Positions 2,670 to 21,952 of a stretch of DNA of 62,621 bases are shown here, piece after piece. Position numbers and translations under genes: made by a program. Every line of letters starts with the position of its first letter. Positions within the stretch are counted from its first letter, which is position 1. Below the pieces are notes generated by a model. That model saw only the letters and a list, made by a program, of their open reading frames with translations. It made no database searches and had not been told where the DNA came from. The stretch covers positions 1 to 62,621 of the forward strand of contig JAQULQ010000001.1 in NCBI GenBank assembly GCA_028718505.1, written 5' to 3'. Source of the stretch: Candidatus Colwellbacteria bacterium (GTDB taxonomy: Bacteria > Patescibacteriota > Minisyncoccia > UBA6257 > Colwellbacteraceae).

Positions 2670-5600
2670 ATTATCTTAGCTTCTCCGTCTCGCATGGATG
2701 TCCTGCCGCTTATATTTACAGCTTTGTTAATCTCCCAAAGACTGCCTGTTCTAGCTAGTACATCCGAAAAAACAAGTACCTCTATAGTATCACCCAGATC
2801 TTCAATGGTGGCAAAAGCCATGGGTTGACCACTCTTAGTTATAATTTTTTTCACCACAGACACTACTCCGCAAACTTTAACTTCCGCTCCTTCTTTCCCG
2901 TCCTTTTTGATGCTCTTTATGGTCTTGACGGCGTCCCCGCCATTTTTCTCAAAATATTGTTTCAGGGGATGCTCCGTTACATAGAGACCAAGGAGCTCTT
3001 TTTCCCAGCCCAACTTCTCTGCCTTAGTGACCGTACGATTGGCAGGCTGAAGCTTGATCTCAAACTTGTGCACTCCGCCGAAAAGTCCCCGGCTTCCGTT
3101 ACCGCTGTTGCTCTCCCCGGCTGCTCGCAATACAGAATCCACATTTTCCAAAGCCGTCGCTCTGTCTATTCCAAAAGAATCAAGCGCTCCGCTTTTGGTA
3201 AGCGACTCCAAACTTTTTTTATTCAACCCATAGGGCCTGGCACGGAGTGCCAGATCAGCCAATCCCTCAAAGGGGCCGCCCTTCAGTCGTTCCTCGACCA
3301 ACCTTTCGGTCAGTGCTAAGCCGACGTTCTTGATAGCGGAAAGTCCGAAACGGATATTCGCTCCTTCTGGAGCAAAGTGTGCCACACTGTTATTTATGTC
3401 TGGCGGCAGCACCTTGATGCCCATCCTTTCTGCCTCCTGGATGAAAAAAGCAGTCCTTTCTATGTCGTTGCCAGTGTGATTGAGAATAGATGTAATGAAT
3501 TCTTCCGGATAGTGGGTCTTCAGATAAGCGGTCCAATAACCAATAAGAGCGTAAGAAACTGCATGTGACCGGTTAAAACCATAGCGGGCGAAGGGTGGAA
3601 ATAGGTCCCAGATCTTTTCTGCTGTCTTCTTATCAATGCCCCCCTGGATCATGCCCGTTACCAACTTCTCTTTCTGTTCATCTAAGAGTTTCTTGATTTT
3701 CTTGCCGATGGCTTTTCTAAGTGTATCTGCTTCAGGCAGGGTATAGCCCGCTAGGTCGGTGGCGATTTTCATCATCTGCTCTTGATAAACGCCGATGCCA
3801 TAAGTGCTTTTTAGGATCGGTTCGAGAGAAGGATGGATATAGACAACTTTTTCTTCACCCCACTTTCTCTTGATATAGGAGGGGATTAGCTCCATCGGTC
3901 CGGGCCGGTAGAGTGCCACCAGGGCCGTCAGGTCTTCCAGCTCGGAAGGTTTGATCTCCTTCATATATCTGCGCATGCCGGAAGATTCGAACTGAAATAT
4001 GCCGACAGTCTCGCCCGTCCTAAGAAACTCAAAAGTCGCCTGGTCGTTTAGGGGTATCTGCGAAACTCGGATGGTTTCATCTCGCAGTTCTTTGATCAGG
4101 CGTATGGTTTCCTGAATAATGGTCAGATTCCTGAGCCCCAATAAATCGATCTTCAAAAGCCCCAGATCTTCCACGCCGTGCATCTCGACCTGGGTGATAA
4201 TAGTATTGTCGTCCTGGGGGGCACGCTGAATAGCTAAGTATTCCGTAATGGGTTTCTCGGTAACCACCGTTCCGCAGGCGTGCACGGAGGCATGGCGGGC
4301 AACACCTTCAAGATGTGAAGCCATCTGCAGAAGCTCCTTGGCTTTAGGATCGGAATCAGCTATCTGTTTTAATTCAGGGATGGTTTGGAGATAAGTTTCA
4401 ATCTCGCTTTTGGGTCTTCCCTGATTGGGATTAAAGGGGATAAGTTTTGCTATCTGATCGCAGAAAGAATAGGGGAGCCCCATGGCTCTGCCAGCATCGC
4501 GAACAGCCTGCCGGGCAGCCATTGTGCCGAAAGTAATGATTTGGGCTACGTGGTCTTCCCCGTACTTCTCCCTTAAATAGCCGAATACTTCATCGCGCCT
4601 ATTGTCAGCAAAGTCCAGGTCGATGTCGGGCATTTCATTTCTTTCCGGATTAAGGAACCTTTCGAAAAGCAGGCCGTATTTAAGGGGATCAACTTCAGTG
4701 ATGTTCAGCAGATAAGACACCAGACTGCCGGCGGCTGAGCCCCTGCCCGGACCTACCATAATACCCCTGTCTTTTGCCCAGTTCACTAAATCCTGAACTA
4801 TTAAGAAATAATCCTCGAAGCCGGTTTTTTGGATAATGGCCAATTCATGCTCGATTCTGTCCTGGATGGCTTTGTCAGCTTTACCAAAACGTTCTTTTAT
4901 TCCCCCATTAACTAATTTGCGGAGATATTCGATACTGTTCTTTTCGCCTTGGGGAAGCTGATACTTGGGCAGATGTAACTGTTTCAGTTTAAAGTCAAAA
5001 TTGCACTTCTCAGACACTTCAGCCGTATTATCGATCGCTTCCAGGGCGCTTTTTTCATCGATGGCCATTCCGCCCTCTTTAAAGAGTTCCAGCATCTCCT
5101 CGGCCGACGCAAAAAATGCCATATAGCCGCCGAAATTGAAGCGGCTTTCATCGTCAATCTTATTGCCAGTTTGGATAGCCAGCAGAATATCGTGGGTCGG
5201 CTGATCAGCCCTTTCTACATAGTGTGAATCTTGGGTGGCGACTACTTTGATATCCAGTTCTTGCGCTAGTTCGGTTAGATCTTTCTGGTTGAATTTTGTC
5301 TGAGGCTGGATCTCAATGTAATAGTCGTCTCCGAAGAGTCTTTTATAATACTTAGCTATTTCATAAGCCTTTGTTTTCTCTCCGTGTTCTAGCGCCCGAC
5401 TCAGCTCTCCAGCTGGACATCCCGAAAGACATATCAAACCCTCGTGATGTGCCTCTAACAATTCTCTGTCCATGCGAGGCTTGTAATAAAAGCCCTCCAA
5501 GTGGGCCTTGGTGGCTAATTGGACAAGATTTTTATAGCCCATCTCGTTTTTGACCAGAAGAGTAAGGTGATAGCGCTCGGAGTCTTTACCTGGTTCTTTG

Positions 5601-5830
5601 TCGTGTCGGCTGCGCTGAGCCACATATCCCTCCATGCCGATAATGGGTTTGGTGCCCGCCTTTTTTGCCTTTTGGTAGAATTCCACTGACCCATAAAGAT
5701 TGCCGTGGTCTGTAATGGCCAGCGCTTCCATTCCCAACGACTTAGCCTTATCAATCAGTGCATCGATCTTGGAAAGGCCGTCTAGAAGAGAGTAGTGGCT
5801 GTGCGTGTGCAGATGTACGAATTTGTTCAT
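2639..5830 (-). CDS. dnaE: DNA polymerase III alpha subunit
   Basis: 1063-aa ORF with PHP-domain start MNKFVHLHTHSHYSLLDG, pol III alpha core (GSAAGSLVSYLLNITEVDPL) and a C-terminal OB fold. Length is normal, so no intein. Confidence 0.95.
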   Translation of the reverse strand: MNKFVHLHTHSHYSLLDGLSKIDALIDKAKSLGMEALAITDHGNLYGSVEFYQKAKKAGTKPIIGMEGYVAQRSRHDKEPGKDSERYHLTLLVKNEMGYKNLVQLATKAHLEGFYYKPRMDRELLEAHHEGLICLSGCPAGELSRALEHGEKTKAYEIAKYYKRLFGDDYYIEIQPQTKFNQKDLTELAQELDIKVVATQDSHYVERADQPTHDILLAIQTGNKIDDESRFNFGGYMAFFASAEEMLELFKEGGMAIDEKSALEAIDNTAEVSEKCNFDFKLKQLHLPKYQLPQGEKNSIEYLRKLVNGGIKERFGKADKAIQDRIEHELAIIQKTGFEDYFLIVQDLVNWAKDRGIMVGPGRGSAAGSLVSYLLNITEVDPLKYGLLFERFLNPERNEMPDIDLDFADNRRDEVFGYLREKYGEDHVAQIITFGTMAARQAVRDAGRAMGLPYSFCDQIAKLIPFNPNQGRPKSEIETYLQTIPELKQIADSDPKAKELLQMASHLEGVARHASVHACGTVVTEKPITEYLAIQRAPQDDNTIITQVEMHGVEDLGLLKIDLLGLRNLTIIQETIRLIKELRDETIRVSQIPLNDQATFEFLRTGETVGIFQFESSGMRRYMKEIKPSELEDLTALVALYRPGPMELIPSYIKRKWGEEKVVYIHPSLEPILKSTYGIGVYQEQMMKIATDLAGYTLPEADTLRKAIGKKIKKLLDEQKEKLVTGMIQGGIDKKTAEKIWDLFPPFARYGFNRSHAVSYALIGYWTAYLKTHYPEEFITSILNHTGNDIERTAFFIQEAERMGIKVLPPDINNSVAHFAPEGANIRFGLSAIKNVGLALTERLVEERLKGGPFEGLADLALRARPYGLNKKSLESLTKSGALDSFGIDRATALENVDSVLRAAGESNSGNGSRGLFGGVHKFEIKLQPANRTVTKAEKLGWEKELLGLYVTEHPLKQYFEKNGGDAVKTIKSIKKDGKEGAEVKVCGVVSVVKKIITKSGQPMAFATIEDLGDTIEVLVFSDVLARTGSLWEINKAVNISGRTSMRDGEAKIICQNVKEVSL

Positions 5831-5899
5831 AGGGTGACTCTCGTTTCAAATTATACCGACCCTGACCTAAACTTAAAGAAGCGATATCTAAAACTATCA

Positions 5900-6541
5900 A
5901 TGCGATACACCATAGGCATAGACGAAGTGGGCAGGGGAGCTTTGGCCGGACCGGTGGTCGTCGCTGCCGTGGCGGTGCCTGAGGGTTTCAATTCTTATCC
6001 CAGACATCTCCCGAAACTCAAAGATTCTAAAAGACTTTCTCAAAAACAGAGAGAGGTTTGGTACGCGTATATTTGGGAGAATCAACAATTGTTTTCTGCC
6101 AGCGCCCGCGTCTACCAGCACAAAATAGACAGACTGAATATTTCTCAGAGCGCCAATTTAGCCGCCGGCCGCGCCTTGGACGGAGTACTCAAACAGTTGA
6201 ATGATGCCGATGCGATAGATGTTGTTTTAGATGGGGGTTTATATCTAAGACGTAAGAAGCATCTGTCTCTGCGACCCAAAACTATTGTGAGGGGAGACCA
6301 GAGAAGAAATTCGATCAAGCTAGCGTCGATCGTCGCGAAGATCAAGCGGGATAAGTACCTTAGTTTTCTCGACTGCCGATACCCAGGTTATAACCTGGGT
6401 GCACATAAAGGCTATGGAACGAAGATGCACTTTCAGGCCATTCGGGAGCTGGGCATTCTGGAAGTGCATAGAGAAAGTTTTCTTAAAAGCATTAAAATGC
6501 AGCCCAAAGCTGGGAGTAAAAATATCGTTCGGGGTCTTTAA
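5900..6541 (+). CDS. rnhB: ribonuclease HII
   Basis: MRYTIGIDEVGRGALAGPVVVAAV carries the RNase HII DEVGRG motif. I chose ATG 5900; the ORF-track start at 5795 overlaps the dnaE start. Confidence 0.88.
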   Translation: MRYTIGIDEVGRGALAGPVVVAAVAVPEGFNSYPRHLPKLKDSKRLSQKQREVWYAYIWENQQLFSASARVYQHKIDRLNISQSANLAAGRALDGVLKQLNDADAIDVVLDGGLYLRRKKHLSLRPKTIVRGDQRRNSIKLASIVAKIKRDKYLSFLDCRYPGYNLGAHKGYGTKMHFQAIRELGILEVHRESFLKSIKMQPKAGSKNIVRGL

Positions 6542-6571
6542 TTTTTTTACCTTTAGCCTTAAACTATTGGC

Positions 6572-13005: not shown

Positions 13006-13036
13006 CGGGAACTCTTCGTGTTAAAATGACTTAAGT

Positions 13037-13285
13037 ATGACAGATCTGATCTTAGAACTAACGGTTATGGTGTCTTTGGCGATCATCGTCTATCTAATGG
13101 CCGCTGCCGTTCCCAGAGTGGAGGAAGAGATGGGAGAGGAGAGGATTCAGCGTACCTCTCTTCCGCTTGATAAGCTGGATAGTTTTCTAGTTAAGTTCAA
13201 GGATAAACTGCTGCGCCGGACGAAAATTCTATTAATGAGGATAGATAATCTTATCAGCCGACAGCTTAGAACGAAAAAACCTTAA
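13037..13285 (+). CDS. hypothetical small membrane protein
   Basis: 82-aa ORF with one N-terminal hydrophobic helix (LILELTVMVSLAIIVYLMAAAV) and a basic tail. No recognisable family. Confidence 0.45.
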   Translation: MTDLILELTVMVSLAIIVYLMAAAVPRVEEEMGEERIQRTSLPLDKLDSFLVKFKDKLLRRTKILLMRIDNLISRQLRTKKP

Positions 13286-13351
13286 GGAATCCAAGCGTTG
13301 TGTTGCTTGAACGGAGCCCGATCCTTGTTTAAACTTGTTTTAGTCGTACCT

Positions 13352-13435
13352 GCATGGGTGGCGGAGCGGTCAATCGCACCAGACTGTAAATCTGGCGGCC
13401 TTGTGCCTACGGGGGTTCGAATCCCTCCCCATGCA
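13352..13435 (+). tRNA. tRNA-Tyr (GTA), class II with long variable arm, CCA not encoded
   Basis: Acceptor GCATGGG/CCCATGC, anticodon arm CCAGA-CTGTAAA-TCTGG, variable arm GGC-CTTGT-GCC, T arm GGGGG-TTCGAAT-CCCTC. Confidence 0.9.
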
Positions 13436-13541
13436 CACTTCGACGCACTGCGTTCGCTCAGTGCAAGCGTCAAGAAGGGGAATCTGGCGCGGGATGGATG
13501 TCTTGCCCCGAGCTCGTCGGAGGGAATCCCTCCCTATGCAC
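13436..13541 (+). repeat. structured module attached to the tRNA-Tyr 3' end, ending in a duplicate of the tRNA T-arm/acceptor 3' strand
   Basis: 13419-13436 GAATCCCTCCCCATGCAC is repeated at 13524-13541 GAATCCCTCCCTATGCAC. Internal hairpin GCACTG/CAGTGC. Homologous to 20871-20975. Confidence 0.7.
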
Positions 13542-13628
13542 CCCTGAACCGGAGCTGTTTCACAACACGGTTTAGGATAGGTGTGAACCATACTATGTTC
13601 TGGCTCACGCCACCCTAAACCAGAGTCG

Positions 13629-13790
13629 TTCGCCACCAAGACGAAATCATTCTATGATTTCATCGGGTGCCGTCGCTCGAAGCGCAGTTTGAAAGATTCG
13701 CCACCAAGAGAAAACTACAGAGTAGTTTTCTCGGGATGGCATCGCTCGAAACACAGATATAAAACAAGTTTTATATCTGGTTTCTCGCTC
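13629..13790 (+). repeat. tandem ~68-nt repeats, each an acceptor-stem-like minihelix of tRNA-Thr(TGT), plus a third hairpin
   Basis: TTCGCCACCAAGA at 13629 and 13697 (13/13). TCGCTCGAA at 13673 and 13742. Perfect but different hairpins at 13643-13661, 13710-13730 and 13754-13779. Confidence 0.75.
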
Positions 13791-13864
13791 GCCACCTTAG
13801 CTCAGCTGGCCAGAGCAACAGTTTTGTAAACTGTGGGTCCCCGGTTCGAATCCGGGAGGTGGCT
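13791..13864 (+). tRNA. tRNA-Thr (TGT)
   Basis: Acceptor GCCACCT/AGGTGGC, anticodon arm ACAGT-TTTGTAA-ACTGT, T arm CCCGG-TTCGAAT-CCGGG. Confidence 0.9.
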
Positions 13865-13871
13865 CTCAAAA

Positions 13872-15191
13872 ATGCCCAAAGTCCATTTTATAGGTATCGG
13901 GGGGATAGGAATGAGTGCATTAGCTCGCTATTACCTTGCAGAAGGCTACTCCGTTACGGGCTCTGATCTGGTCGCTTCAGATGTGATGGATGCCCTTAAG
14001 CGATCCGGTGTGGATATATATATCGATAGTGGTGACCGACAGCAGGTAGCAGAGGATCTCGAAGCAGTTATTTATTCGGCAGCAGTCCCGGCCGAGCATT
14101 CAGAGTTAGAGCAAGCCCGCGGTATGGGCATTCGAACGTTAAGCTATGCCGAGGCCGTAGGAGAACTGACAAAGAAATATTTTACCTTAGCCGTGGCCGG
14201 CACTCACGGCAAATCAACCACCACCAGTATGCTGGCTTTAATGCTGATTGAGGCGGGGCTTGATCCGACCGTTATTGTCGGCGCCAGGTTGGCAGAGTTC
14301 AGGGGGACTAATTTTAGGAGAGGTGAAAGCAAGTATCTAGTTATTGAAGCGGATGAATATGACAGGTCCTTTATGTATTACCAGCCCCAGATCACCATTA
14401 TTAACAACGTTGATAATGATCACCTTGATACCTATGGAGACATAAATGGGGTGGCCGAAGGTTTTAATCAGTATCTTAAGAACCTTTCTCAGGATGCGGT
14501 TGCTGTCCTAAACTCCCAGGACGTTCATACGGAGAAAATACTAACGGGTGTTCGATGTAAAATAGTCTTTTTTAATCACAAAGAGGCGGTCTATGCTTGG
14601 CCGCTGACTTTGCCTGGGCGCTATAATCAGCTGAATGCTGAAGCTGCCTGGCAGGCAGCTCAGTTGGTGGGCGTTGAGCGGTCAGTTGCCGAAGCCGCTC
14701 TGATGAAATTTACGGGTATCTGGCGGCGCCTGGAGCCCTTAGAACCAATAGAACCGTCGTTTATGAGAGATACTATGTTTTTCTCTGATTACGGTCATCA
14801 TCCGACGGAGGTCAGTGTCACACTCGAAGGATTAAGAGAAAAGTATCCGCAGAAAAAAATACTAATTATCTTTCAGCCCCATCAGGCGAAACGGCTGGAC
14901 AGCGTGTTCATGGAATTTGTCGGAGCCTTTAAAAAGGCAGATGCGGTGTGTCTACTGCCGGTGTATCAAGTCGCCGGCAGAGAAGAGAGCGCAGAACACA
15001 AGACCAGCCAGGATCTCAGCACAGCCATTATGGACAACAACAGAAAACTGAGCATTAATCAGCAGGTTTCTTATAAAGAAAATTTTGAAGACTCGCTTGC
15101 GCTTATCGAGGGGGGGGTGGTAGTCTTTATGGGTGCCGGCGACATTGATACGTCGGTCAGGGAACATTTTCAGTCGAAGCTGATAAAGTAG
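13872..15191 (+). CDS. murC: UDP-N-acetylmuramate--L-alanine ligase
   Basis: MPKVHFIGIGGIGMSALA and GTHGKSTTT Mur-ligase motifs. Start moved to ATG 13872 because the track start overlaps the tRNA. Confidence 0.93.
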   Translation: MPKVHFIGIGGIGMSALARYYLAEGYSVTGSDLVASDVMDALKRSGVDIYIDSGDRQQVAEDLEAVIYSAAVPAEHSELEQARGMGIRTLSYAEAVGELTKKYFTLAVAGTHGKSTTTSMLALMLIEAGLDPTVIVGARLAEFRGTNFRRGESKYLVIEADEYDRSFMYYQPQITIINNVDNDHLDTYGDINGVAEGFNQYLKNLSQDAVAVLNSQDVHTEKILTGVRCKIVFFNHKEAVYAWPLTLPGRYNQLNAEAAWQAAQLVGVERSVAEAALMKFTGIWRRLEPLEPIEPSFMRDTMFFSDYGHHPTEVSVTLEGLREKYPQKKILIIFQPHQAKRLDSVFMEFVGAFKKADAVCLLPVYQVAGREESAEHKTSQDLSTAIMDNNRKLSINQQVSYKENFEDSLALIEGGVVVFMGAGDIDTSVREHFQSKLIK

Positions 15192-15210
15192 CACCGAGAC
15201 AGGAATGAAT

Positions 15211-15239
15211 GCCGAGATAGAGTATCCGCCCTCTCGGCT
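15211..15239 (+). repeat. internally deleted mini-copy of tRNA-Thr(GGT): acceptor 5' and 3' strands only
   Basis: GCCGAGATAG-agtatccgcc-CTCTCGGCT compared with the tRNA ends GCCGAGATAG...CCCCGTCTCGGCT, 83 nt downstream. Confidence 0.6.
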
Positions 15240-15293
15240 GCGTTCGGAGAAGATAAATATACAATATTGATGTATTTATTTTCCGCTTCACTT

Positions 15294-20657: not shown

Positions 20658-20798
20658 AGTACCTTTCTGAACATTTTTCGGAGATGGCTCTGCTCGTCGT
20701 AGTATAACGCATTGAAAAGGATGGTGTTTTATAATAGATTTGAGAGCGTTGATGGGATTTACCCCTCTATGCTCTTGGTGTTGGCCGGAATAGAGGAG

Positions 20799-20870
20799 GG
20801 CCCTGTCGTCTAGAGGCTAGGACGCCGCCCTCTCACGGCGGAAACCGGGGTTCGATTCCCCGTGGGGTCA
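20799..20870 (+). tRNA. tRNA-Glu (CTC)
   Basis: Acceptor GGCCCTG/TGGGGTC (three G-U pairs), GTCTAGAGG D arm, anticodon arm CCGCC-CTCTCAC-GGCGG, T arm CGGGG-TTCGATT-CCCCG. Confidence 0.85.
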
Positions 20871-20975
20871 CACTTCGATTCGCGATGCTCACTCAGTGCG
20901 AGCATTCGCATCGAGGTTAGGAATAAGGGAATCTTTTGTTCTGAGCGTAGTCGAAGGAATTCCCCGTGGAGTCAC
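20871..20975 (+). repeat. structured module attached to the tRNA-Glu 3' end, ending in a duplicate of the tRNA T-arm/acceptor 3' strand
   Basis: 20855-20871 ATTCCCCGTGGGGTCAC is repeated at 20959-20975 ATTCCCCGTGGAGTCAC. Same CACTTCGA start, same CTCAGTGC loop offset (+21) and same GGGAATCT box as 13436-13541. Confidence 0.7.
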
Positions 20976-20980
20976 CAGAA

Positions 20981-21952
20981 ATGATGGAAAAAAATATTCG
21001 TGAATATGCCCGGCAGTTCGCCTATGAACCCGAGGTTAAGAATGCCGATAAGCTCGGTGAGTTTGAAACCGTTGTGATCGGGGGTATGGGTGGTTCTGGG
21101 CTGGTGGCCGGCGTCTTAAGGGCTATTAAACCCTCCCTGGATGTGGCCGTCCATCATGAGTATGGCTTGCCTCAATTCGCCGATAAAGACAAAGAAAAGC
21201 GTCTTTTTATAGCTATCTCACATTCTGGCAACACCGAAGAAGTCGTTGATTTTATGAACACGGCCGTCAGTCAAGGACTGCAGACTGCTGTCGTTGCATC
21301 CCACGGAAAGCTGCTTGAACTAGCTCAGCAAAATGGCCTACCCCATATCACCCTCCCCGCTGACGATATTCAGCCGCGCATGGCACTAGGCTATATGCTG
21401 CGCGCTGTTCTAAAACTGATCAAAGAAGAAGATCTTTTCTCAGAGACGGGTAAACTTACAGATAACCTGAAACCGACGGAGCTTGAACCGCACGGAAGGA
21501 GGTTGGCGGAGGCGGTCATTAATAGAATACCCATTATCTATGCCTCCCGTTCTAATCAAATTCTTGCCTATAACTGGAAAATAAGGTTTAACGAAACTGC
21601 AAAAGTCCCCGCGTTCTTTAATACCTTTCCCGAGTTAAACCATAACGAGATACAGGGCTTCGGTACCCACGAGGGCAGCCAAGTCTTGTCTGAGAAAATG
21701 AGCTTCATTTTTTTGGAAGACGACTCAGACCACCAACGTATTAAAAGGAGAATGGACATTACGGCTGCCATGTATAAGAAATTTGGACTGCCAGTGGAAC
21801 GTATCGGTCTTGAGGGCGGAACTAGGCTGGAGAAGATCTTTAATACGATCATATTGGGGGACTGGACGGCCTATCACGCGGCTCTGAAATATGGTGCTGA
21901 ACTGGAATCTGTTCCTGGAATCGACGAATTTAAGCGAGCCCTCGGTGCTTAA
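20981..21952 (+). CDS. bifunctional phosphoglucose/phosphomannose isomerase (SIS domain)
   Basis: SIS motif VIGGMGGSGL, ISHSGNTEE, and C-terminal FPELNHNE motif of the PGI/PMI family. Start is ATG 20981 or GTG 20966. Confidence 0.8.
   Translation: MMEKNIREYARQFAYEPEVKNADKLGEFETVVIGGMGGSGLVAGVLRAIKPSLDVAVHHEYGLPQFADKDKEKRLFIAISHSGNTEEVVDFMNTAVSQGLQTAVVASHGKLLELAQQNGLPHITLPADDIQPRMALGYMLRAVLKLIKEEDLFSETGKLTDNLKPTELEPHGRRLAEAVINRIPIIYASRSNQILAYNWKIRFNETAKVPAFFNTFPELNHNEIQGFGTHEGSQVLSEKMSFIFLEDDSDHQRIKRRMDITAAMYKKFGLPVERIGLEGGTRLEKIFNTIILGDWTAYHAALKYGAELESVPGIDEFKRALGA

Follow-up and report, generated by a model that had tools for sequence, protein, structure and literature searches.

A hairpin-forming module between repeated tRNA ends: a candidate insertion unit at tRNA genes of Candidatus Colwellbacteria

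The DNA analyzed here, a 62,621-nt stretch of a Candidatus Colwellbacteria contig (the window), carries an 87-nt module directly after its tRNA-Glu gene, followed by a second copy of the last 17 nt of the tRNA. A homologous module, bounded in the same way, stands after tRNA-Tyr. The feature is real, non-random, recurrent, and conserved. On its nature we are more guarded. Our favored reading, to which we give about even weight, is that it is an 87-89-nt non-coding, hairpin-forming insertion module that targets the 3' ends of tRNA genes, and the evidence points to a tRNA-targeting miniature element of a kind hitherto undescribed. Below, R1 and R2 are the upstream and downstream copies of the repeat and M is the module. 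At tRNA-Glu the layout is:

20799-20871, plus strand: tRNA-Glu(CUC), called by ARAGORN; Rfam tRNA model, 55.2 bits (Rfam end 20870)
20855-20871, plus strand: R1, ATTCCCCGTGGGGTCAC, tRNA positions 58-74
20872-20958, plus strand: module M of the Glu type, 87 nt, homologous to the Tyr-type modules
20872-20917, plus strand: HP1, a long imperfect hairpin with lower stem ACUUCGAU / AUCGAGGU, from minimum free energy (MFE) folds and compensatory changes across eight copies
20927-20942, plus strand: HP2, a short hairpin (GGGA / UUCU, loop AUCUUUUG) that contains the GGGAATCT box
20943-20958, plus strand: tail GAGCGUAGUCGAAGGA, whose GUCGAAG is complementary to the module's 5' end (distal partner, or right inverted terminal repeat)
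20959-20975, plus strand: R2, ATTCCCCGTGGAGTCAC, 16/17 against R1, offset 104 nt, G to A at 20970

The repeated segment is the same part of the molecule at tRNA-Glu and tRNA-Tyr: the 3' part of the T-loop, the 3' strand of the T-stem, the 3' strand of the acceptor, the discriminator A73, and C74. A repeat search returned both copies with the coordinates and letters given by an earlier, sequence-only reading of this DNA, and the rest of that description was also found in place: the opening string of the insert, (C)ACTTCGAT; the hairpin arms at 20882-20890 and 20900-20909; the GGGAATCT box at 20927-20934; and the proximal ATCGAGG (20910-20916) and distal GTCGAAG (20950-20956). Together, the module and 17 nt make an insertion unit of 104 nt. 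The Glu insert encodes no open reading frame (ORF), and its flanking genes are housekeeping genes. The tRNA-Glu gene does not encode CCA and ends with A73 (20870) and C74 (20871). CCA is likewise not encoded at the tRNA 3' ends at 13436 and 13865 or in the relatives, where a C follows A73 (U73 in tRNA-Thr); among the tRNAs checked, only L033 and L038 (two of the related loci introduced below) encode CCA after tRNA-Tyr.

The upstream repeat appears to be the working 3' end of the tRNA, as the sequence-only reading had argued from its better pairing. R1 of tRNA-Glu pairs fully with the 5' acceptor strand GGCCCUG, three G·U pairs included, while A20970 of R2 faces C4 in a C·A mismatch; at the Tyr locus, T13535 of the second copy would form a G·U pair with the tRNA 5' strand. 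These changes bear on an intron-like arrangement, in which positions 1-57 would be spliced to R2 in the mature tRNA, with R1 and the module removed. Both repeats are complete, so that either formally closes the cloverleaf, and the distal pairing would draw the two together. Nevertheless, the damaging changes lie in R2 and not in R1 (C4·A69 in the window's Glu copy; A3·C70 in the Tyr copy of L012, a copy with the same sequence in L024), and no ribozyme, group I, or other intron family matches at E-values up to 10. To our knowledge, bacterial tRNA introns are group I introns of more than 200 nt in the anticodon loop, and we know of no intron that has a duplicated exon end. We therefore regard splicing as highly improbable.

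The second module of the window lies at tRNA-Tyr:

13352-13436, plus strand: tRNA-Tyr(GUA), with R1 at 13419-13436
13437-13523, plus strand: sister module of the Tyr type, subtype alpha, 87 nt, same layout as at tRNA-Glu
13524-13541, plus strand: R2 of the Tyr locus, 17/18

The duplicated tRNA coordinates, positions 58-74, are identical at both tRNAs. The pattern CACTTCGA-N(5-25)-CTCAGTGC occurs in the 62.6 kb only at the Tyr and Glu sites, with 0 occurrences expected. Aligned globally, the two inserts reach z = 8.3 relative to dinucleotide shuffles, and none of 2000 shuffles attains the score. The earlier proposal that the two appendages are homologous, and not alike by chance, thus withstood a shuffled-control test. 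The GGGAATCT box that it held to be shared did not survive the family alignment, in which the counterpart of the Glu box is GGGAUGUCU of the Tyr copies, the stem and loop of the second hairpin, and not GGGGAATCT of the window's Tyr copy. The same figures leave practically no credence for a chance repeat or an assembly artefact. The shortness of the repeat is all that speaks for it, against two tRNAs, an expectation of 0 chance matches, the alignment score, and a layout that recurs in independent assemblies from JGI, ENA, and NCBI.

Syntenic loci of relatives (numbered with an L) came from pattern scans of one genome collection and one metagenome collection, exact-protein look-ups, and a sequence profile search. 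The scans demanded three exact boxes, so that they recovered only close relatives, and most other matches were due to chance. In total there are nine full copies and one partial copy in seven genome lineages, six Colwellbacteria-like and one Daviesbacteria. Homologues of RsmH, MurC, and Pgi mark the source of the window as a Candidatus Colwellbacteria-like member of the Patescibacteria. The window region consists of housekeeping genes in conserved gene order, and the two sites compare as follows:

Glu site, window: filled; R2 followed by CAGAAATG
Glu site, L036 (closest Pgi, 72%): filled, the contig beginning inside the module; ...AGCGTAGTCGAAGG / GATTTCCCGTGGGGTCAC / TAAAGGATG
Glu site, L012/L024-26: filled; R2 17/17, followed by ATTTTAACAGGATG
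Glu site, L031: empty, no footprint; GTCAC / TAAACAATG
Glu site, L037: empty, no footprint; GTCAC / TGAACAATG
Glu site, L027/28, L029, L032, L033, L034 (more distant relatives): empty
Tyr site, window, L012/L024, L039, L040, L027/L028: filled
Tyr site, L029, L038, L033, L034: empty

R2 of the orthologous Glu copies matches at 17/17 positions in L024 and 16/17 in L036. At the Tyr site, tRNA-Tyr and tRNA-Thr are separated by only 1-6 nt in L038, L033, and L034. Protein identity matrices give the arrangement ((window, (L036, L037, L031)), L024), with L027 and L029 outside and L033 and L034 further out, which places L031 and L037 within the module-carrying clade. The simplest history of the Glu module would be one gain in the ancestor of the clade and one clean loss in the L031/L037 branch; the alternative would be three independent gains. 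Because tRNA-Glu abuts pgi without a footprint in these two close relatives, the 104-nt unit is a discrete indel whose borders fall exactly at the 17-nt repeat and which leaves a normal tRNA-pgi junction behind. The sequence-only reading had named footprint-free absence from close relatives as grounds for giving the feature up. Such absence is what L031 and L037 display, yet the feature remains real: the empty sites show that the module is a discrete insertion with which the tRNA can dispense, and no integral part of it. L031 and L038, empty at Glu and Tyr, respectively, share a source sample, and if they represent one organism, the module appears dispensable at both tRNAs.

Modules also occur in tandem. 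L027 reads tRNA-Tyr-R-A-R-B-R (4388-4598), with two different modules, A and B, that are identical over about 38 nt on the 3' side and differ by about 30% in their 5' halves. The equivalent region of L028 (2590-2694; the RsmH proteins are identical) has module A alone, followed by the third-type repeat. The L028 state would result if A and B recombined within their identical 3' halves, and the uneven similarity of A and B suggests recombination or gene conversion inside the L027 array. We also observed that L027 and L032, both in GCA_043819735.1, are two copies of the syntenic region whose RsmH proteins are 70% identical; this bin probably mixes two organisms. An orphan copy with no adjoining tRNA lies at 650-730 of L002, a Daviesbacteria metagenome-assembled genome (MAG).

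Given the R-M-R and R-A-R-B-R arrangements, the clean empty sites, and the identical tRNA coordinates at two tRNAs, we favor site-specific insertion of a small unit. The 104-nt unit would enter the 3' end of a tRNA gene such that R1 keeps the tRNA whole and R2 is displaced beyond the module. This could happen through a staggered cut before A58 in the T-loop and after C74, with fill-in producing a 17-bp target-site duplication, or through a Campbell-type crossover within the 17 bp. Either route would require a hypothetical enzyme supplied in trans and not encoded in the window. Repeated entry would build tandem arrays, and recombination between R1 and R2 would remove the unit cleanly. Once inserted, the module would probably be transcribed as a 3' trailer of the tRNA and, at Glu, also as the 5' leader of the downstream isomerase gene, pgi/pmi. 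The trailer RNA is predicted to form HP1 with its UCAGU loop and HP2, with a tail that may pair with either the 5' end of the module or the T-stem part of R2. After insertion the module would be retained by purifying selection, and R2 at Glu would preserve, and in the window's genome improve, the sequence just upstream of the pgi start.

The conservation of the module is consistent with such retention. Between the window and L024, 4-fold degenerate sites of conserved residues are 34% identical, compared to 86% for the Tyr module and 86% for the Glu module; between L039 and L040 the values are 33% and 88%. The 4-fold identities are at saturation in both pairs, and the DNA upstream of tRNA-Glu is not alignable between the window and L012. 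Either the module is under purifying selection or it has moved between lineages recently. Its strong conservation suggests that the inserted module matters within the tRNA (and pgi) transcript. Each R2 departs from its R1 at 0-2 positions, and across seven copies the changes in R2 number 1 in the T-stem part and 5 in the acceptor part. The Tyr modules fall into three subtypes:

Tyr subtype alpha: window and L024
Tyr subtype beta: L039 and L040
Tyr subtype gamma: modules A and B of L027

The L039 module is 88% identical to that of L040 and 68% to that of the window, despite L039 proteins being closest to those of the window's clade. This conflict between subtype and host tree would fit horizontal movement. 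At the Tyr site of L039, R1 has G69, as in L040, and R2 has A69, as in the closest relatives of L039. The arrangement hints that R1 may have been carried by the element, but two ordinary substitutions would explain it equally well.

An origin of the modules as scars of genomic islands or prophages is unlikely. A tyrosine integrase would have recombined attP with the segment from T-loop to 3' end, regenerating R1 and displacing R2; the island would later have been deleted, its ends fusing as the 87 nt. Identity blocks of att sites reportedly often run from the T-loop to the gene end, and the repeat has just this span. A regenerated target with a displaced fragment in direct orientation is a hallmark of islands in tRNA genes (tDNA islands; PMC4383910), which also form tandem arrays, and the G69/A69 difference in L039 fits an element-borne R1. 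However, independent deletions would not leave 87-89 nt in all subtypes at both tRNAs, and neither compensatory pairs (below) nor 86-88% identity across saturated divergence would be expected of a scar. Moreover, an integrase gene or remnant is absent at every copy examined, and nothing similar turned up in phage or viral collections: both modules were compared with 50,697 phage records by blastn, and IMG/VR was scanned twice by pattern, with only chance matches in coding DNA.

Folding provides a second line of evidence for constraint. In MFE folds, every copy but the window's Tyr copy forms the long imperfect 5' hairpin HP1. Its base joins an invariant ACUUCGA to a variable proximal partner (GAAG, CGGAGU, UGAAGC, AUCGAGGU, and others), and its tip is an invariant UCAGU loop closed by a C-G pair, found at 20893-20897 in the Glu module. 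We examined covariation in HP1, HP2, and HP3, a hairpin of tail and R2, on an unfitted MAFFT alignment of eight copies. Standard pairs fill 81.6% of cells, compared to 35-56% with slid partners; 10 pairs changed on both sides, compared to 1-6 in slid controls; and none of 500 shuffles reaches the covariation score of 0.312, with controls that are lenient in that the structure was derived from the same sequences. In HP2, where columns 62-65 of the alignment pair with 74-77, the Glu copies have A-U in place of the G-C of the Tyr copies. A helix between the box and R2 as the main interaction (GAGGGAU / GGGGAAU against AUCCCUC / AUUCCCC) was rejected, having no compensatory changes. Because HP2 does have them, the G-run of the box is better read as the 5' strand of HP2.

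As the sequence-only reading had noted for the Glu copy, the 5' segment can pair in two ways, and in all copies we find two segments complementary to ACUUCGA, one proximal and one distal. The second fold, which excludes the first, joins 5' blocks (ACUUCGAC, GCUC, GCAAG) to 3' blocks (CUUGC, GAGC, GUCGRAGG). It is 92% paired, compared to 37-49% in slid controls; all of its blocks are invariant, so it offers no covariation evidence. As DNA, ACTTCGAC...GCTC...GCAAG and CTTGC...GAGC...GTCGAAGG are 92% complementary. One may equally see in these blocks the imperfect terminal inverted repeats of a DNA element; they comprise CTTCGAC/GTCGAAG, a 7-bp inverted repeat in subterminal position, and two further complementary blocks.

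These features also suit a non-mobile trailer RNA that evolved in the host, an explanation we consider possible and hold tentatively. R2 would compete with R1 or form a pseudo-T-arm with the tail, the 5' segment would toggle between its partners, and the whole would govern how the tRNA 3' end matures, whether the downstream RNA is released, or how pgi is translated. Strong purifying selection fits this, as do the invariance of the segments with two partners and the compensated variation of the segment with one, the smaller number of changes in the T-stem part of R2 than in its acceptor part (1 vs 5), and the position of R2 in the pgi ribosome-binding region. The remainder of the spacer between tRNA-Tyr and tRNA-Thr, moreover, also consists of conserved hairpins, some of them mimicking the tRNA-Thr acceptor stem. 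Still, such an RNA leaves unexplained why a homologous module sits at two tRNAs, each with its own 17 nt duplicated, and it accounts for neither the tandem array nor the orphan without a tRNA. The module is also dispensable, if L031 and L038 are one organism, and R2 is mismatched to the tRNA 5' strand in several copies. The two explanations are not exclusive, as an inserted module could be domesticated.

Module and R2 might instead constitute an RNA that acts through its 17 tRNA-identical nucleotides, which we rate as very unlikely. This could take two forms. In one, a scaffold-plus-guide RNA would lead a nuclease or recombinase encoded in trans to the segment from T-loop to 3' end in the RNA's own tRNA gene, so that a 104-nt element would home under RNA guidance. 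In the other, a bistable trailer, the R2 mimic would compete with the real 3' end and gate both tRNA maturation and downstream translation.

Several observations weigh against insertion as we favor it. Recombinase or integrase, transposase, Cas/Cas1, and reverse transcriptase genes are absent from the window proteins scanned and from the surroundings of every copy, and a direct repeat of at least 8 nt, sought around the orphan Daviesbacteria copy, was not found. A 17-bp target duplication is unusual for bacterial transposons. The subtype pattern also fits an old tandem array with differential loss; such arrays do exist (L027), and only a few insertion events are strictly needed. That the module is strongly conserved where synonymous divergence is saturated is more in keeping with an RNA useful to the host than with a selfish element in decay. 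Covariation is modest on the six Tyr copies alone, where 57 of 500 shuffles reach the score. Finally, evidence for the folding strand is weak, with 31 G·U against 25 A·C cells, and MFE clearly prefers the plus (tRNA) strand in three of nine copies and is neutral in the rest.

At tRNA-Glu, R2 adjoins a protein gene:

20981-21952, plus strand: bifunctional phosphoglucose/phosphomannose isomerase (pgi/pmi), from Pfam bact-PGI_C and homologue N-termini
20968-20971, plus strand: GGAG within R2, 9 nt before ATG 20981, from GGGG via G20970A
20712-20740, plus strand: promoter-like TTGAAA-17-TAGATT upstream of tRNA-Glu, a consensus match at about chance rate

Homologues of the isomerase begin M-(M/I)-E-K, which sets the start at ATG 20981 or 20984. 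R2 ends 5 nt upstream, so the earlier suggestion that the repeat overlaps the pgi/pmi start does not hold, and nothing corresponds to its candidate start GTG 20966 in those relatives where 6 nt separate the tRNA from the start of the gene. Nor does the terminal repeat supply ACCA as a rule: CCA follows R2 only in the window, compared to GTCAC-ATTTT in L012/L024 and GTCAC-TAAAGG in L036, and the empty sites read GTCAC-TAAACA and GTCAC-TGAACA, with no CCA. R2 occupies the pgi ribosome-binding region; as a duplicate of the tRNA end, it gives pgi back the upstream sequence that the gene had before insertion. Judging from position and sequence, the GGAG is likely the Shine-Dalgarno sequence of pgi/pmi. 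No terminator-like site was found between the promoter-like site or tRNA and pgi, and no promoter-like site within the module, which makes co-transcription of tRNA, module, and pgi plausible. ORF finders and public gene calls place the pgi/pmi start too far upstream, within R2 or the module, giving 328 amino acids in the window (20966-21952) and 332 in L025/L026 (12989-13987); homologue N-termini indicate about 322-323.

Comparison with known families gave no match for the insert. Searches of Rfam 15 with both loci and the orphan, at gathering score and at E-values up to 10, brought only tRNAs above threshold; sub-threshold matches all lay on the tRNA part, and ribozyme, intron, riboswitch, and small RNA (sRNA) families were unmatched. 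We also rejected a decayed tandem tRNA copy. When each module was aligned with its own tRNA body, at least 77 of 1000 shuffles reached the score in seven of eight cases; the L039 module was marginal at 38 of 1000, which is not significant over eight tests. A 9-nt match to the tRNA body in the window's Tyr copy, AATCTGGCG, is at chance level (77/1000) and missing in other subtypes. Two partial resemblances turned up elsewhere. In L004, a gammaproteobacterial MAG, ACTTCGACTCACTGCGTTTGCTCAGTGC (6539-6566) agrees at 26 positions with the opening 28 nt of the Tyr module of the window, and L016 has, on the minus strand at 2028-2058, a 28-mer like the start of the orphan copy within a long palindrome. 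Neither is accompanied by the remaining module or an adjoining tRNA end.

Directly after the R2 of tRNA-Tyr, 13542-13620 folds into two stable hairpins (z = -3.7) that are 74-87% conserved in L024, L039, and L040, and for this reason we describe the entire 354-nt Tyr-Thr spacer as a conserved structured RNA. Further along, tRNA-Thr(UGU) is preceded by two units in tandem (13626-13696 and 13697-13790), both of which open with TCGCCACC, a copy of the tRNA-Thr leader and 5' acceptor strand. Each folds into a helix resembling an acceptor stem (GCCACC...GGUGCC / GAUGGC) with a hairpin at its tip; in L039 there is a single unit of the same shape, with a wholly different inner hairpin sequence. On the other side of tRNA-Tyr, every syntenic locus has a conserved small ORF of 75-86 amino acids without a Pfam match between EF-Ts and the tRNA (window 13032-13286). 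In module-free relatives, the tRNA 3' flanks are insertion hot spots. An ATP-grasp-like ORF (5240-6418) begins 1 nt past tRNA-Tyr at the module-free site of L029, and in L027 a 219-amino-acid ORF and a 417-amino-acid protein with helix-turn-helix, sigma-70 region 4, and RpoA-CTD domains lie between tRNA-Glu and pgi (13140-15248). These extra genes of L029 and L027 are accompanied by no tRNA-end repeat, and no mobile-element genes were found among them.

If the module is a true mobile unit, it would be the smallest known user of the strategy of regenerating the tRNA and displacing a copy. It would also imply that this group of bacteria, with its tiny genomes and few recognized mobile elements, has an enzyme able to recognize tRNA genes and to make cuts at a spacing of 17 bp. 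If it is a domesticated RNA, then tRNA operons of the candidate phyla radiation (CPR) would carry conserved structured trailers around mimics of tRNA ends, which bears on the processing of tRNA and tRNA-linked mRNA in CPR bacteria with reduced RNase sets. A guide RNA or a bistable trailer, if true, would establish a new class of RNA elements linked to tRNA in CPR bacteria. The repeat also has practical consequences, as it fragments assemblies (the L036 contig begins inside the module) and misleads gene callers (pgi is called from starts in the module or R2).

Several known systems share part of this anatomy. tDNA islands leave a regenerated tRNA and a displaced fragment in direct orientation (PMC4383910). 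An intact tRNA with a displaced fragment is likewise found at the Glu and Tyr sites of the window and in L012, L024, L027, L039, and L040. As in islands made by tyrosine integrases, the tRNA is intact, a direct repeat from the T-loop to past the discriminator bounds the insert, units can stand in tandem, and a clean loss leaves one copy of the repeat. Unlike these islands, the module is 87 nt long and gene-free, has a conserved hairpin and the same length at different tRNAs, and lacks both an integrase and an architecture resembling arm sites.

The casposase of Aciduliprofundum boonei makes a 15-bp duplication, measured from the segment that encodes the T-loop of tRNA-Pro (PMC5137440). Casposons would resemble the module in their long target duplication (15 bp, compared to 17), in terminal inverted repeats, if the complementary ends of the module are read as such, and in the preserved tRNA end. 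However, their duplication overlaps the tRNA by 5 bp and that of the module lies wholly inside it (58-74), and casposons are kilobase elements with cas1 and polB, whereas no cas1 lies in the window or the fetched loci. We know of no miniature casposon derivative of about 87 nt.

In size the closest counterparts are miniature inverted-repeat transposable elements (MITEs) and Correia, RUP, and REPIN-type elements, which are similarly about 100 nt, non-coding, and non-autonomous, with complementary conserved ends, hairpins, and co-transcription with neighbors. They differ in having duplications of 0-10 bp, many intergenic copies, and no targeting of tRNA ends; the module has a 17-bp duplication, stands strictly after tRNA nucleotide 74, and has only two copies in 62 kb. 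A MITE moved by a DDE transposase was rejected on the length of the duplication, 17 bp instead of 2-10 bp, and neither the genome and metagenome pattern scans nor the profile search found a parent insertion sequence.

Other likenesses are to RNAs. Escherichia coli 3'ETS-leuZ is an sRNA sponge derived from the 3' external transcribed spacer of a tRNA. It too is a conserved RNA directly 3' of a tRNA that RNase cleavage could release, which for the module is a prediction, but it has no copy of the tRNA end, no empty-site indel, and no related sequence. In type V-K CRISPR-associated transposons (CASTs), the homing CRISPR RNA (crRNA) has a short spacer of about 17 nt that matches a tRNA gene. Like TnpB omega-RNAs and these crRNAs, the module is a structured scaffold followed by about 17 nt identical to a tRNA segment, and in the tRNA the matching 17 nt are preceded by a conserved GGTTCG. 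The resemblance is formal only: no TnpB, IscB, or Cas12k gene lies nearby in the window or at any copy, the scaffolds have no similarity, and 87 nt is shorter than known scaffolds. Set beside these systems, the module is a new variant of element insertion at tRNA ends, unusually small and under RNA-like constraints.

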